Source of the DNA: a phage
Length of the DNA: 64,000 nt
Reading direction: 5' to 3' (one strand)
Sequence record: PZ347775.1
The first letter of the stretch is position 1. Each line of letters begins with the position of its first letter. Below are positions 1,317 to 18,642 of the stretch, in pieces. Below the pieces are notes generated by a model, which saw nothing but the letters and a program-made list of their open reading frames with translations, was not told the origin of the DNA and ran no database searches. Made by a program: the position numbers and the translations under genes.

Positions 1317-1595
1317 TTATTCTTTAAATCTAATCAATTTATTCATAGACTTTGAAACTTCTGCACGAACCTCATGTAGGTTTTTAAGCTGTTCAAGACG
1401 TTGCTCATAGTAAGCAATTTCATCTTCTTCGAGACAGTCCTGTGAATCTTCTTTAAGATAACGTGCATAATCCTGGAAAGCTTTACGGACTACTTCCTGG
1501 AAGTCATCAAGACTTTGAATTTTCTTAGGAGCAACAGATACACGACGAGGGGCAGTATAATACTCATAACCAAACCCTGCGCTTAATTGAGCCAT
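1317..1595 (-). CDS. hypothetical protein (vs.3 position)
   Basis: ORF; start chosen at ATG 1595-1593 forming a TAATG overlap with upstream stop; ORF-track start at 1637 lies inside upstream gene. Confidence 0.55.
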
Positions 1596-1861
1596 TAATA
1601 TTTTTCCTCTGGTTGAAACACAGCACGACAAGCCCACATACTAGCTTCTTTGAGTTTCGTTTTAGCAATAGTTAACTGATCGATGCTTTCAGCATAATTC
1701 TTCGCGAATTCATAGTCTTCACAATTATTTAGCACTTCCCAGAATTCGTCGTATAAAGCATCAAAGATAAGTCCTAAACGAACTTCAGCGTCTTTGATTG
1801 CATTCACTTTACCGATTTTCTCTTCAGTATGGGGCTTATAACCTTTAATGTCTTCAATCAT
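1595..1861 (-). CDS. small helical protein at vs.4 position; candidate Acb2-like cyclic-oligonucleotide sponge
   Basis: 88 aa ORF, third gene downstream of GrcA-like vs.6 equivalent; assignment by gene order only. Confidence 0.5.
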
Positions 1862-2075
1862 ATTCTACTTCCTCACCAGTACATAAATCATATTCAACTA
1901 AACGAATAGGTTCATGAATGCCATATCCTTGAACAGAAATTTCTGTCGTAGGATAAATTCCACTAATATCACCCATATTCCACGCTTCATTAAATTGCTG
2001 TTCGCCTGAATTACTAAACCACTCGGCGAAAGCATTTAGCACATCTTTAGAACCTTCAATAATTATCTTTGCCAT
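1854..2075 (-). CDS. hypothetical protein (vs.5 position)
   Basis: 73 aa ORF tightly packed between neighbours. Confidence 0.5.
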   Translation of the reverse strand: MAKIIIEGSKDVLNAFAEWFSNSGEQQFNEAWNMGDISGIYPTTEISVQGYGIHEPIRLVEYDLCTGEEVEYD

Positions 2076-2449
2076 TACAGACTCTCGGTAAAGGTACGAG
2101 CAATAACGTCGCGCTGCTGTTCCGGAGTCAGAGAGTTAAAGCGAACTGCATATCCGGATACACGGATGGTCAGCTGCGGATATTTTTCCGGATGCTTAAC
2201 TGCATCTTCCAGAGTTTCGCGACGCAGAACGTTAACGTTCAGGTGTTGACCACCTTCAATTTTAACTGTAGGTTGTGGTTCAATTTCAATTTCACGGGCA
2301 TGCAAACCGTAGAAAATTTCCGGGTCTACAAAAGAGTCCTCTTTAAAAGTTTTAGAGACAATAATTCTTGCTTGAATACCGTCTTCAAAATAAATAGTAC
2401 CTTTATGCGTGCCTTCAAGAATTTGATATGCTTTCATATAACCTCTCAA
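2075..2449 (-). CDS. autonomous glycyl-radical cofactor (GrcA/YfiD-like; T4 vs.6 equivalent)
   Basis: 124 aa; C-terminal glycyl-radical motif [25 protein letters not shown] as in GrcA and pyruvate formate-lyase C-terminus. Confidence 0.85.
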
Positions 2450-2775
2450 TTAGAAAATAAATTTATCCAAGATTGCTCTTTAATTAAAAATGGCTCAGAA
2501 TCATATGCCATTAAACTTTGGGTGATTAGTCCTTTAAAAGGCCCATCAATAAATTCCATGGTAAAATATGGAATTTTATTCATTAATCTTGCATTAGGAG
2601 CAGTGCACAAAACTCTGCATCCTTTGAATACGCCTTTTTGTAATTTGTATTGCTTAGGGTAAAATTCGCTCAAGACGTTGTTATTTGCCAAAATTTCAAA
2701 ATGATTCACCAATTTATTTTTAATAGTTTTTGGCGAAAAATAAAGATATTCGAAAAGTTGCGTGTCTGTCATCAT
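2446..2775 (-). CDS. hypothetical protein (vs.7 position)
   Basis: start set at ATG 2775-2773 giving ATGA overlap with upstream stop 2774-2772. Confidence 0.55.
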
Positions 2776-3359
2776 TGCATTCCGATTACGAAAAACTGTG
2801 GACGAGTAATACCACCAATGCAACATTTACTATTGCAGCAGTAATGTACAGTGTCAATATGGACACTATAAATTTTATCCATATCGGGAGCTTTAACAGG
2901 CTCATCGATTATATACAAAATCCGCGAAAGCGATAAACCTCTGAACTTGCTTCCTTTATTACCGATAAAACTACGGACAGAATCGGTAAATAAGCGGAAT
3001 CGAATATCATCGCCAGAATAACGAGAAAATTCTTTTTTAATGTGGCCTGCAGAAATTTTAGCGTAAGCTGAAGTATTAGAAAGAACAATAACTGTTCCAC
3101 CATCATACAGCCAATTAGCAGCAAAGTTAGTCACAGCAGTTGATTTACCGGATTGTCTGCCACCATCTAATCGAAGTGTGCAATACTGCTTGAGTAAGTC
3201 TTCAAATGGTGGGATATAATCGTTTTTACAAATTTCTTCTACTCTAGCATCAGAATGGTGTGTAAAAGCATTCATCAGGGATAGATAAGGACCAGTTAAA
3301 AATGTTCTCATTTTATTCTCTCTAAATTTGGGCCATTCCATGGCGCATGAATTGTCCAT
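2772..3359 (-). CDS. P-loop NTPase of unknown function, sitting where T4 has vs.8/denV
   Basis: Walker A GGRQSGKST, Walker B-like LYIIDEP, Cys-rich tail HYCCNSKCC; start ambiguous (ATG at 3359, 3341 or 3311); no resemblance to endonuclease V. Confidence 0.6.
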   Translation of the reverse strand: MDNSCAMEWPKFRENKMRTFLTGPYLSLMNAFTHHSDARVEEICKNDYIPPFEDLLKQYCTLRLDGGRQSGKSTAVTNFAANWLYDGGTVIVLSNTSAYAKISAGHIKKEFSRYSGDDIRFRLFTDSVRSFIGNKGSKFRGLSLSRILYIIDEPVKAPDMDKIYSVHIDTVHYCCNSKCCIGGITRPQFFVIGMQ

Positions 3360-3464
3360 TTCTGTATTTACCCATTACCGCACTTGGGCTCGACCTTATT
3401 ACAGGTTGGCGGGAATCCCTCATAGAACCATGAGGTCCAGCTTGTTCCCATATTTCTTATTTGC

Positions 3465-3938
3465 TTATTTGAATGATTTGACGTACTGAATAGAGCCTTT
3501 GCTATTCACGAAAGCGATTTTACCATTTTTATTATACATGGTAGCAGTACGCTGATAGCCATAAGTTTGCTTACCAGATTGATAACCAACTAATGCAAAA
3601 TTATCTTCACCCATTTTATTCTGTTTAGCACGAATGCGTTCATGCCCATGCGCCATAAGAACCTTAGCATCACCAGTTGCAATGGATCTACGAGTTTTTT
3701 CATCTTCAACTGTATTAACAAAGTCGTCAAATGAATCAAATTTAGCATGGGATTTATTATACAGTTTTCCATCTACTGCATAATTGTATCCTTGTACATC
3801 CATCTCAACTTCTGTACCATCATCTAATACAGCAGTGATTTTTTGACCTTTTTTAAATTTCAAAAGATCAGTAAAAGATTCAGCAATAATTTGAGAATTA
3901 ATAGCTGCTTCAGTAATAAATTCTTGATATGTTTTCAT
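3465..3938 (-). CDS. internal protein with capsid-targeting sequence (IPII/IPIII locus)
   Basis: N-terminus MKTYQEFITEA matches the T4 internal-protein targeting leader with an (L/I)xE cleavage site. Confidence 0.75.
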   Translation of the reverse strand: MKTYQEFITEAAINSQIIAESFTDLLKFKKGQKITAVLDDGTEVEMDVQGYNYAVDGKLYNKSHAKFDSFDDFVNTVEDEKTRRSIATGDAKVLMAHGHERIRAKQNKMGEDNFALVGYQSGKQTYGYQRTATMYNKNGKIAFVNSKGSIQYVKSFK

Positions 3939-3954
3939 GTGTATCCTTTAATTT

Positions 3955-4272
3955 TTATTCTTTAGGGAAGTTTTTAGAATATGCATCATAAAGCTTATTT
4001 CCAATACGGCGGAAAACTCTAGCCGCAAAACGATTTTCTGGGTTTTTAATCATGATTTGCATCATATAAGTACCCGCGTCAGAAAGAGCTTCTTCATAGT
4101 ACCCGTTAATTTCTTTAAGAGTCCTACGTTTACCACCAGGACCATCAACAGTGATTTTCCATTTACCTGTAGAAGTGCGACTTGGCGGCTCAACTTGTTC
4201 AATCCAGATATAACCGCCTTCTACACGTTGTCCTTGGGCAGATTCTGCAATAAATTCTTTAAACGTTTTCAT
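3955..4272 (-). CDS. internal protein with capsid-targeting sequence (IPII/IPIII locus)
   Basis: N-terminus MKTFKEFIAESA; 105 aa; adjacent to lysozyme gene as in T4. Confidence 0.75.
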   Translation of the reverse strand: MKTFKEFIAESAQGQRVEGGYIWIEQVEPPSRTSTGKWKITVDGPGGKRRTLKEINGYYEEALSDAGTYMMQIMIKNPENRFAARVFRRIGNKLYDAYSKNFPKE

Positions 4273-4310
4273 ATGGTTCCTTTAAATATTTTAATTAGTA
4301 ACTATGAATA

Positions 4311-4339
4311 TACTATCACAGTTCTAGGAGAAAGTAAAC
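4311..4339 (-). promoter_or_regulatory. putative early promoter upstream of internal-protein gene
   Basis: minus strand GTTTAC followed about 17 nt later by TGTGATAGTAT; same module recurs at 8.7 kb and 12.1-12.9 kb. Confidence 0.4.
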
Positions 4340-4343
4340 AACT

Positions 4344-4874
<531 letters not shown>

Positions 4875-10130: not shown

Positions 10131-10206
10131 TGGTCGAGGCAGTAGGGATCGAACCTACGACCTAGGACTTAGAAGGTCCTTGCTCTTCCTTCTGAGCTAT
10201 GCCCCG
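10131..10206 (-). tRNA. tRNA-Arg (anticodon UCU)
   Basis: hand-folded cloverleaf; anticodon loop CUUCUAA, T-loop UUCGAUC, 7-bp acceptor stem, CCA encoded. Confidence 0.85.
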
Positions 10207-10210
10207 TAAT

Positions 10211-10286
10211 TGGGGTGACCGATGGGAGTCGAACCCATGACTACGAGAATCACAATCTCGAGTTCTACCAACTGAACTACGGCCAC
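10211..10286 (-). tRNA. tRNA-His (anticodon GUG)
   Basis: anticodon loop UUGUGAU, discriminator C73 typical of tRNA-His, T-loop UUCGACU, CCA encoded. Confidence 0.75.
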
Positions 10287-10400
10287 ATTAATACCTACTC
10301 CAACAATCAAGATGTCTTCACACGAAATTAAGAGAAGAGTGATCAGTTCAACCCCGATAATCGCGTCAAGTAGATATTAATGTGACAGTTGTCACAAATT

Positions 10401-10475
10401 TGGCGGACGTGATAGGATTCGAACCTATAACCAATCGCTTAACAGGCGATCGCTCTGCCATTGAGCTACACATCC
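10401..10475 (-). tRNA. tRNA-Asn (anticodon GUU)
   Basis: anticodon loop CUGUUAA, D-stem GCUC/GAGC, T-loop UUCGAAU, discriminator G, CCA encoded. Confidence 0.8.
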
Positions 10476-10479
10476 AAAT

Positions 10480-10566
10480 TGGTGGGGAGTGATGGAGTCG
10501 AACCACCCGAGTCGCAATGACAATGGATTTACAGTCCACACCGCTACCTCTACGGGATAACTCCCC
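10480..10566 (-). tRNA. tRNA-Tyr (anticodon GUA)
   Basis: 87 nt with long variable arm; anticodon loop CUGUAAA; discriminator A; perfect 7-bp acceptor stem. Confidence 0.75.
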
Positions 10567-10579
10567 TTAATTCTTAATT

Positions 10580-10654
10580 TGGTGGCCCTGGGTGGAATTG
10601 AACCACCATCTGGCGATTATGAGTCGCTTGCTTGAACCTTCCAGCTACAGGGCC
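10580..10654 (-). tRNA. tRNA with anticodon CAU (Ile2-type as in T4, or Met)
   Basis: anticodon loop CUCAUAA; T-loop UUCAAUU; perfect acceptor stem; D-stem only 3 bp. Confidence 0.7.
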
Positions 10655-10655
10655 T

Positions 10656-10731
10656 TGGTGCTGATTGACGGAATCGAACCGCCGACCTTCTCATTACAAG
10701 TGAGTTGCTCTACCTACTGAGCTAAATCAGC
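10656..10731 (-). tRNA. tRNA-Thr (anticodon UGU)
   Basis: anticodon loop CUUGUAA; D-stem GCUC/GAGC; T-loop UUCGAUU; CCA encoded. Confidence 0.85.
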
Positions 10732-10736
10732 AAAAC

Positions 10737-10826
10737 TGGCGGAGGCGATAGGATTTGAACCTATGAGTCGCCGGAGCGACTGCCGGTTTTCAAGACCGGT
10801 GCATTAAACCACTCTGCCACGCCTCC
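10737..10826 (-). tRNA. tRNA-Ser (anticodon UGA)
   Basis: 90 nt, long variable arm GUCGC/GCGAC; anticodon loop CUUGAAA; CCA encoded. Confidence 0.85.
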
Positions 10827-10828
10827 AG

Positions 10829-10902
10829 TCTCCATACAAGGATTTGAACCTTGGACCTCCTGATCCCAAATCAGGCGCTCTACCAAACTGAGCTACACGG
10901 AG
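10829..10902 (-). tRNA. tRNA-Pro (anticodon UGG)
   Basis: anticodon loop UUUGGGA; T-loop UUCAAAU; CCA not encoded, abuts tRNA-Ser (T4-style Pro-Ser dimer). Confidence 0.8.
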
Positions 10903-10912
10903 TAAATTAAAT

Positions 10913-10986
<74 letters not shown>

Positions 10987-10991
10987 AAATT

Positions 10992-11078
10992 TGGTGCGAG
11001 AAGTGGGACTCGAACCCACAAGGAAATCATTCCGCAGCATTTTAAGTGCTGTGCCTTTACCAATTTGACCATTCTCGC
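10992..11078 (-). tRNA. tRNA-Leu (anticodon UAA)
   Basis: 87 nt with long variable arm; anticodon loop CUUAAAA; T-loop UUCGAGU. Confidence 0.85.
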
Positions 11079-11079
11079 G

Positions 11080-11152
11080 CTGGGAATAAAGGACTCGAAC
11101 CTTTGCATCCTGGAATCAAAATCCAGTGCCTTACCAACTTGGCTAATTCCCA
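11080..11152 (-). tRNA. tRNA-Gln (anticodon UUG)
   Basis: anticodon loop UUUUGAU; perfect acceptor stem UGGGAAU/AUUCCCA; discriminator G; CCA not encoded. Confidence 0.8.
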
Positions 11153-16931: not shown

Positions 16932-18642
16932 TAACCTTAATTGGTTTGTTGGTGTTGTTGAAGATAGAATGGACCCATTAAAATTAGGTCGTGTTCGTGT
17001 TCGTGTAGTTGGTCTGCATCCACCTCAAAGAGCACAAGGCGACGTAATGGGTATTCCAACTGATAAATTACCATGGATGTCGGTTATTCAACCTATAACT
17101 TCTGCAGCAATGTCTGGAATTGGAGGCTCCGTTACTGGTCCGGTAGAAGGAACTAGAGTTTATGGTCATTTTTTAGACAAATGGAAAACTAACGGAATTG
17201 TCCTTGGCACATATGGCGGAATAGTTCGCGAAAAACCTAATAGACTTGAAGGATTTTCTGACCCAACTGGACAGTATCCTAGACGTCTAGGAAATGATAC
17301 TAACGTATTAAACCAAGGCGGAGAAGTAGGATATGATTCGTCTTCTAATATTATCCAAGATAGCAATCTAGACACTGCGATAAATCCTGATGATAGACCA
17401 CTATCAGAAATTCCAACTGATGATAATCCAAATATGTCAATGGCTGAAATGCTTCGCCGTGATGAAGGATTAAGACTAAAAGTTTATTGGGATACTGAAG
17501 GATATCCGACAATTGGCATTGGTCATCTTATCATGAAGCAACCAGTTCGTGATATGGCCCAAATTAATAAAGTTTTATCAAAACAAGTTGGTCGTGAAAT
17601 TACCGGAAATCCAGGTTCTATTACAATGGAAGAAGCGGTAGCTTTATTTGAACGTGATTTGGCTGATATGCAACGTGACATTAAATCGCATTCTAAAGTT
17701 GGCCCAGTTTGGCAAGCAGTTAATCGTTCTCGTCAAATGGCATTAGAAAATATGGCATTTCAGATGGGTGTTGGCGGTGTAGCTAAATTTAACACAATGT
17801 TAACTGCTATGTTAGCCGGAGATTGGGAAAAAGCATATAAAGCTGGTCGTGATTCATTGTGGTATCAACAAACAAAAGGCCGTGCATCCCGTGTTACCAT
17901 GATTATTCTTACAGGGAATTTGGAATCATACGGTATTGAAGTGAAAACACCGGCTAGGTCTTTGTCAGCAATGGCTGCTACTGTAGCAAAGTCTTCTGAT
18001 CCAGCTGACCCTCCTATTCCGAATGATTCGAGAATTTTATTTAAAGAACCTGTTTCTTCATATAAAGGTGAATATCCGTATGTTCACACAATGGAAACTG
18101 AAAGCGGTCATATTCAGGAATTTGACGATACCCCGGGACAAGAACGATACAGATTAGTTCATCCGACTGGAACATATGAGGAAGTATCACCGTCAGGAAG
18201 AAGAACAAGAAAAACTGTTGATAATTTGTATGATATAACAAATGCTGATGGTAATTTTTTGGTAGCTGGCGATAAAAAGACTAACGTCGGTGGGTCAGAA
18301 ATTTATTACAACATGGATAATCGTCTCCACCAAATAGATGGAAGCAATACAATATTTGTACGTGGCGATGAAACTAAGACAGTTGAAGGTAATGGAACTA
18401 TCCTAGTTAAAGGTAATGTTACTATTGTAGTTGAAGGTAATGCTGACATTACAGTTAAAGGGGATGCTACTACTTTAGTTGAAGGAAATCAAACTAATAC
18501 AGTAAATGGAAATCTTTCTTGGAAAGTTGCTGGGACAGTTGATTGGGACGTTGGTGGTGATTGGACAGAAAAAATGGCATCTATGAGTTCTATTTCATCT
18601 GGTCAATACACAATTGATGGATCGAGGGTTGACATTGGCTAA
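16915..18642 (+). CDS. 5: baseplate hub / tail lysozyme gp5
   Basis: 575 aa; central lysozyme domain resembling gene e product; C-terminal VxGxxxxx beta-helix repeats. Confidence 0.95.
   Translation: MEMISNNLNWFVGVVEDRMDPLKLGRVRVRVVGLHPPQRAQGDVMGIPTDKLPWMSVIQPITSAAMSGIGGSVTGPVEGTRVYGHFLDKWKTNGIVLGTYGGIVREKPNRLEGFSDPTGQYPRRLGNDTNVLNQGGEVGYDSSSNIIQDSNLDTAINPDDRPLSEIPTDDNPNMSMAEMLRRDEGLRLKVYWDTEGYPTIGIGHLIMKQPVRDMAQINKVLSKQVGREITGNPGSITMEEAVALFERDLADMQRDIKSHSKVGPVWQAVNRSRQMALENMAFQMGVGGVAKFNTMLTAMLAGDWEKAYKAGRDSLWYQQTKGRASRVTMIILTGNLESYGIEVKTPARSLSAMAATVAKSSDPADPPIPNDSRILFKEPVSSYKGEYPYVHTMETESGHIQEFDDTPGQERYRLVHPTGTYEEVSPSGRRTRKTVDNLYDITNADGNFLVAGDKKTNVGGSEIYYNMDNRLHQIDGSNTIFVRGDETKTVEGNGTILVKGNVTIVVEGNADITVKGDATTLVEGNQTNTVNGNLSWKVAGTVDWDVGGDWTEKMASMSSISSGQYTIDGSRVDIG

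Follow-up and report, generated by a model that had tools for sequence, protein, structure and literature searches.

The window analyzed here is a stretch of 64,000 nt of phage DNA (PZ347775.1) belonging to a Tequatrovirus. The 2 kb around the gene of interest, vs.6, share 97.3% DNA identity with phage Kha5h and 96-97% with numerous other coliphages of the T4 type, and 502 phage records cover at least 80% of this stretch. The first 5 kb of the window are occupied by tightly packed minus-strand ORFs, which correspond to vs.1, regB, vs.3-vs.8, an ipIV-like gene, e (lysozyme), and nudE. Within them, vs.6 is part of the tightly packed, co-directional early-gene run vs.8-vs.7-vs.6-vs.5-vs.4-vs.3-regB, and the gene order regB-vs.3-vs.4-vs.5-vs.6-vs.7-vs.8 is common to the window, T4, ime09, and Kha5h. 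The following features were assigned at the locus:

2075..2437, minus strand: vs.6 (Y06I) coding sequence, GrcA-type autonomous glycyl radical cofactor (from the ORF, T4 identity, synteny, PF01228, TIGR04365, and 6OWR)
2442..2445, minus strand: Shine-Dalgarno-like GAGG, 4 nt upstream of the vs.6 ATG (read from the sequence)
2138..2164, minus strand: glycyl-radical motif RVSGYAVRF, aa 92-100 (read from the sequence; aligned to GrcA and PFL)
2260..2437, minus strand: 5′ half of vs.6, encoding the diverged N-half (without E. coli DNA match; homologous to the GrcA N-half by hhalign)
2075..2259, minus strand: apparently host-derived patch, gene nt 179-363 (aa 61-120 plus stop), encoding the structured glycyl-radical domain (from DNA identity to grcA, breakpoint, and GC)

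The underlying minus-strand ORF spans 2075..2449 and begins with TTG, a purely mechanical start. The first-pass annotation had taken this whole range as the gene. The ORF is indeed there, but the true start lies 12 nt inside it, at the ATG of 2437..2435, which gives a coding sequence of 363 nt (120 aa plus stop). The TTG at 2449 was rejected as start codon because the GAGG ribosome binding site and the annotated length of vs.6 in T4, ime09, and Kha5h, likewise 363 nt, favor the ATG at 2437. The TGA stop codon of vs.7 (2446..2448) is located immediately upstream of the GAGG, and the TAA stop codon of vs.6 overlaps the ATG of vs.5 by one base (2075). Scans for sigma-70 promoters and terminators around vs.6 returned no more sites than were found in shuffled sequence.

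The encoded protein is identical to T4 Vs.6/Y06I (NP_049730) in 119 of 120 residues. The sole difference concerns residue 73, which is an arginine here, as in E. coli GrcA, and a histidine in T4. T4 vs.6 and its orthologs carry the RefSeq name "autonomous glycyl radical cofactor GrcA", and many related records annotate vs.6 likewise. The gene is an ordinary one for T4-like phages, and its reading as a spare part is already present in the literature and in databases.

Compared with T4, the neighborhood of vs.6 in the window shows a longer vs.5, a different 5′ end of vs.8, and the absence of denV. The vs.5 gene (1854..2075, minus strand) encodes 73 aa here and in Kha5h, compared with 58 aa annotated in T4; T4 Vs.5 matches the window in two segments (aa 1-17 and 17-58), and its annotation has a later start. 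In the vs.8 region (2772..3423, minus strand), aa 1-32 of the T4 protein match at 3423..3328 and aa 26-219 at 3359..2775, in different frames, which indicates an indel or frameshift near the vs.8 5′ end. The ORF that is open here comprises 195 aa (2772..3359). A tblastn search with T4 denV (endonuclease V) gave no match within the 64-kb window. In T4, ime09, and Kha5h, denV lies in the variable segment between vs.8 and e, i.e. right after vs.8 in T4, whereas in ime09 and Kha5h it has ipIV on one side and a gene for an internal head protein on the other. The window has, at 3359..4344, an ipIV-like ORF (3465..3938) directly followed by a 105-aa ORF (3955..4272) and then e.

Two genes downstream of vs.6, vs.4 (1595..1861, minus strand) encodes a protein 95% identical to T4 Vs.4. 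The related record PV390659.2 annotates an 'anti-CBASS protein 2' within the 2-kb stretch around vs.6, a gene which we take to be vs.4 (Acb2); the neighborhood of vs.6 thus mixes metabolic and anti-defence early genes. Elsewhere in the window, a cluster of 11 tRNA genes was found at 10131..11152 (minus strand), comprising Arg, His, Asn, Tyr, Met(CAT), Thr, Ser, Pro, Gly, Leu, and Gln. T4 has eight tRNA genes, so that the His, Asn, and Tyr tRNAs are additional ones in this phage. A second lysozyme-like segment (17434..17931, plus strand) shares 43% identity with T4 e across 161 aa and presumably represents the lysozyme domain of the baseplate hub protein gp5.

Family membership and the glycyl-radical motif

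Profile searches assigned the 120-aa product to the Pfam family Gly_radical (PF01228; residues 61-101, E = 2.8e-18, 66.8 bits compared with a cut-off of 22.2), and no domain besides Gly_radical was found in the protein. The best NCBIfam match was TIGR04365 (GrcA; E = 3.7e-45, 153.3 bits), while PHROG 1209, the T4 vs.6 group, matched over the full length (residues 1-120, E = 1.2e-62). A search of the PDB retrieved the NMR structure of E. coli GrcA (6OWR, E = 8.6e-42) and residues 697-759 of pyruvate formate-lyase (PFL; 1H16, E = 5e-26). The latter was the best match to a full-length glycyl-radical enzyme, others scoring 4e-12 or weaker. Judged by these values, the match to Gly_radical/GrcA lies beyond chance by a wide margin.

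Members of the GrcA family are stand-alone proteins of ~14 kDa that carry the glycyl-radical domain in their C-terminal half. All sequence and structural features of this family (IPR011140/TIGR04365) were found in the window protein, with the exception of the TIGR04365 equivalog cut-off of 170 bits, which its score does not reach. This shortfall arises because the N-half is diverged and only ~25% identical to GrcA. From its sequence, the protein is best described as belonging to a diverged phage subfamily of GrcA (vs.6/PHROG 1209) and not as a strict TIGR04365 equivalog.

The first-pass annotation had placed RVSGYAVRF within the C-terminal 60 residues, and the motif does occupy residues 92-100 of the 120-aa product. 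In the alignment to E. coli GrcA that had been suggested as a check, the glycine of RVSGY, which fits the family pattern RVxG[FWY], is conserved: G95 (codon 2153..2155, minus strand) aligns with G102 of GrcA (6OWR) and with G734 of PFL (1CM5/1H16). The claim that the C-terminal 60 residues closely resemble GrcA/YfiD turned out to be understated, since residues 61-120 are 100% identical to residues 68-127 of E. coli GrcA.

Mosaic structure of vs.6 and its distribution

When vs.6 was compared by BLASTN with 5,426 complete E. coli genomes, only gene nt 179-363 matched, at grcA (5425 records) and with 96-98% identity; the DNA of the N-half (2260..2437) gave no E. coli match in this search. Aligned to E. 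coli grcA, the 3′ 185 nt of vs.6 show 97.3% DNA identity, and the switch in identity falls inside codon 60. In a maximum-chi-square analysis, identity changed from 44.4% to 97.3% at a breakpoint following nt 178, a result reached by none of 2000 permutations. The patch, whose counterparts are GrcA 68-127 and PFL ~700-759, coincides almost exactly with the structured radical domain, and its five differences from E. coli grcA are all synonymous. Base composition changes as well: GC is 0.50 in the patch compared with 0.29-0.35 in the flanks, and GC3 is 0.44 in the patch compared with 0.22 in the 5′ half.

For calibration, the same 183 nt were compared between E. coli grcA and its counterparts in Citrobacter (92.3%) and Salmonella (83.6%). 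None of the non-Escherichia host genes sampled thus comes as close to E. coli grcA as the phage patch does with its 97.3%. With regard to the donor, DNA identity to tdcE, and of a Klebsiella-phage homolog to pflB, was only ~76-84%, compared with 97% to grcA; the donor was therefore grcA and not pflB.

Both halves of E. coli grcA are evenly diverged from other enterobacteria (Citrobacter 92/89%, Salmonella 84/85%). It is therefore the phage gene that is mosaic, with transfer from host to phage. Transfer from phage to host was rejected on account of this even divergence and of the host-like GC of the patch. Recent capture of the whole gene from E. coli was also rejected, since identity amounts to no more than 44% in the 5′ 178 nt. 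By its DNA, the radical-domain half seems to have been replaced recently by E. coli grcA DNA acquired from the host. The same patch is present in T4 (97.8% identical to E. coli) and in Mosigvirus APCEc01 (95.1%), and they have a C-to-T change at patch position 177 in common. These observations fit a patch that was imported once, before these lineages split, although repeated conversion would also be possible. No paper on the mosaic structure of vs.6 was found in the literature searched; older T4 papers may mention it.

The N-half was compared at the protein level. An hhalign comparison of 12 phage N-halves with 67 host GrcA N-halves gave a probability of 96.6% (E = 4.8e-10, 25% identity), and an HMM built from the host GrcA N-halves matched the N-half of the window protein with E = 6e-6. 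On the basis of this hhalign probability, we rejected the idea that the N-half is a phage peptide of other origin which was joined to a piece of the host gene.

Full-length homologs were found in 1589 phage records, including many Straboviridae genera, T5-like Demerecviridae, and a jumbo Yersinia phage; in 423 of these records the homolog is at least 99% identical. A vs.6 homolog was also present in all six T4-like genomes of an earlier comparison, i.e. T4 and five relatives (PMC1524935). In ten other homologs taken as a panel, identity of the C-half to E. coli grcA ranges from 63 to 84%. The 3′ part of the gene from Klebsiella phage KP179 (Jiaodavirus) is 91.3% identical to grcA of K. pneumoniae/K. 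aerogenes over 173 nt, compared with 85.5% to E. coli. Of the 20 sites that distinguish E. coli grcA from K. pneumoniae grcA, KP179 has the Klebsiella state at 13 and the E. coli state at 4; the E. coli state is found at 18 of the 20 sites in the window and at all 20 in both T4 and Mosigvirus APCEc01. GC3 of the KP179 gene rises from 0.20 in the 5′ half to 0.54 in the 3′ half. The Klebsiella-type 3′ half of KP179 therefore suggests at least two independent, host-specific imports of the radical domain, one E. coli-type and one Klebsiella-type.

Possibly, the radical half is repeatedly overwritten by grcA of the current host and so comes to match the local PFL/PflA, while the phage docking half is kept; we advance this pattern tentatively, with slightly more doubt than confidence. 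Universal host tracking was not supported in every lineage. In the E. coli Krischvirus KMB43, Klebsiella-type states outnumber E. coli-type states (11 vs 5). The homologs of CC31, leB, Matisse, T5-like phages, and Aeromonas phages share 63-84% identity with E. coli grcA, and none of them exceeds 84% with any host gene sampled. Several vs.6 lineages look old and ameliorated in their sequence.

The GrcA-like gene of the jumbo Yersinia phage fHe-Yen9-04 (354 kb) is fully ameliorated towards the composition of phage DNA, with a GC3 of 0.10-0.11. In Salmonella phage Spc35 (T5-like, Demerecviridae), the GrcA-like gene adjoins tRNA genes. The comparison with K. pneumoniae grcA made use of NZ_CP093490.1, which is filed as a plasmid. 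This record and CP125156.1 (K. pneumoniae "plasmids" of 339 kb and 5.37 Mb) carry chromosomal genes such as grcA and srmB; both probably represent chromosomes, whole or in part, that have been wrongly placed in PLSDB, which is a caveat for that collection.

Proposed function and rival readings

The gene is very probably the T4-type vs.6/Y06I, i.e. a phage-encoded GrcA (YfiD) spare part for host PFL. According to Andorfer et al. 2021 (PMC8683613), who cite Wagner et al. 2001 (BBRC 285:456), PFL-AE puts a glycyl radical on YfiD or Y06I, and the activated protein complexes with O2-cleaved PFL and restores it; T4 Y06I is explicitly named in the title of Wagner et al. 2001. In vivo, G102 of GrcA hands the radical to C419 of PflB intermolecularly (PMC12338860). 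Residues 1-60 of YfiD are disordered and are needed for measurable binding of cPFL and for a fourfold better radical installation, while the C-half (61-127) mimics PFL 693-759 (PMC8683613). YfiD binds cPFL with a KD of 14 uM. The first-pass annotation had proposed that the phage maintains glycyl-radical enzymes of the host or of its own. For host PFL this stands, the 99%-identical Y06I being reported as active (PMC8683613); for phage NrdD no support was found, and BLASTP against the NrdD of a phage gave no significant match.

From its near-identity to the E. coli and T4 proteins, we infer the following mechanism for this exact protein. The active PFL of the host would be cut by O2 at Gly734, and the small phage protein would bind the truncated enzyme. 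The phage N-half probably serves docking to cleaved PFL, as the N-half of YfiD does, because the same N-half is present in T4 Y06I, for which activity is reported; given the divergence of this half, the binding affinity or kinetics for cPFL could differ from those of host GrcA. The C-terminal domain (aa 61-120) would then substitute for the lost C-terminus of PFL. Since this domain is identical to that of host GrcA, the contacts with PFL and PflA should be preserved, and overwriting of the radical-domain half by E. coli grcA DNA would make for an exact fit to both host proteins. Host PflA (PFL-activating enzyme, a radical-SAM enzyme) would install the radical on G95, from where it would be passed to Cys419 of PFL, restoring the conversion of pyruvate into acetyl-CoA and formate. 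Physiologically, fermentative energy metabolism could in this way be sustained in microaerobic infected cells after host expression stops. The supply of formate, the reductant of the class III ribonucleotide reductase (RNR) which T4 encodes, may also be sustained. The searchable literature yielded neither an in vivo phenotype of a vs.6 mutant nor a benefit during infection, so that a benefit to the phage is presumed.

Alternatively, the spare part might be meant not for host PFL but for the anaerobic ribonucleotide reductase NrdD, a glycyl-radical enzyme of the phage itself, with phage NrdG as its activase. We consider this quite improbable, even though a role in phage nucleotide metabolism was suggested by Nolan et al. 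2006 on the grounds that the Gly_radical domain is also found in NrdD (PMC1524935). The same O2 cleavage hits all glycyl-radical enzymes, and spare parts for other members of this group have been speculated upon (PMC8683613). Moreover, the vs.6 homolog adjoins or overlaps nrdG in the Aeromonas phages PX29 and phiWae14; in PX29 it overlaps the end of nrdG inside the block nrdD-nrdG-vs.6-nrdC-nrdH, which hints at co-expression with anaerobic nucleotide reduction. However, vs.6 is not adjacent to nrdD or nrdG in the window or in T4. A BLASTP comparison of the window protein with PX29 NrdD yielded nothing significant, the best alignment (E = 0.29) lying elsewhere than in the radical region, whereas the C-terminal 63 aa align to PFL 697-759 with E = 5e-26 and residues 61-120 are those of host GrcA without a single exchange. 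Activity of Y06I on PFL with PFL-AE is, in addition, reported in PMC8683613. The nrd block of PX29 hints at a link to nucleotide reduction, which the PFL-repair model covers only indirectly, through formate. In the majority of systems characterised, class III RNR uses formate as its cosubstrate, and a formate site has been proposed for T4 NrdD (PMC4493059). As PFL makes formate and class III RNR uses it, the synteny in PX29 would be explicable in this indirect manner. The real pay-off of repairing PFL could even be formate for a formate-dependent phage NrdD in microaerobic infection, an idea for which, with respect to vs.6, no paper was found in the searchable literature.

Still less probable is a decoy which titrates the PFL-activating enzyme of the host or blocks PFL, so that host metabolism is redirected and not repaired. 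The N-half, which in YfiD controls the timing of binding and activation, is replaced by a strongly diverged phage version, and many early T4 genes nearby serve host takeover or anti-defence, e.g. regB and vs.4 (anti-CBASS protein 2 in one record). Against this reading, Y06I is reported to restore cleaved PFL (PMC8683613), and the radical glycine together with the whole catalytic domain is identical to the working host protein, an identity for which a pure inhibitor would have no need. Hardly credible, finally, is that vs.6 represents a functionless passenger, i.e. a fragment of host DNA gained by recombination and not yet lost, as the 97% identity of the 3′ 185 nt to E. coli DNA and their host-like GC could be taken to mean. 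Against this, the ORF is uninterrupted, joins the patch in frame to a phage-specific N-half, and has a ribosome binding site; full-length homologs occur in the 1589 phage records (Straboviridae, Demerecviridae, and jumbo phages) as well as in the six T4-like genomes (PMC1524935), and five of five patch differences from E. coli are synonymous.

As a probable repair part for PFL, vs.6 is a neat case of a phage carrying such a part for a metabolic enzyme of its host. The first-pass reading as stated changes nothing in this respect, the function having already been reported for T4 Y06I. What goes beyond the known is the apparently host-derived mosaic of vs.6. It offers a small, clear-cut instance in which the functional module of an auxiliary phage gene seems to track its host counterpart at the DNA level. 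Among T4-like phages, the patch might be used to recognize which host a phage has recently been associated with.

Comparison with known systems

The closest known counterpart is T4 vs.6, which has the same map position, encodes 120 aa, and shows ~96% DNA identity to the window gene in both halves. E. coli GrcA/YfiD (P68066; 6OWR) is, like Vs.6, a small stand-alone glycyl-radical protein, with a structured domain that bears G102. In contrast, the N-halves of the two proteins are only ~25% identical, the phage version being 7 residues shorter and AT-rich in its coding sequence (GC3 of 0.22 vs 0.39). The genes also differ in location: E. coli grcA has its own locus between ung and eamB, whereas the phage copy is found in the early-gene cluster.

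The C-terminal domain of PflB (1H16/2PFL, ~697-759) and TdcE share the same fold element with Vs.6; RVSGYAVRF is identical, and 63 residues align at E = 5e-26. It is this domain of PflB for which the spare part stands in. Vs.6 is, however, not part of a 760-aa enzyme and is without active-site cysteines of its own. The short forms GrcA2 and GrcA3 (NCBIfam NF008341 and NF038360) have a radical domain of ~60 aa in common with Vs.6 (E = 6.8e-27 and 5.6e-31, respectively), but they comprise only ~80 aa and are without the long N-terminal half, and the window protein scores far below their cut-offs.
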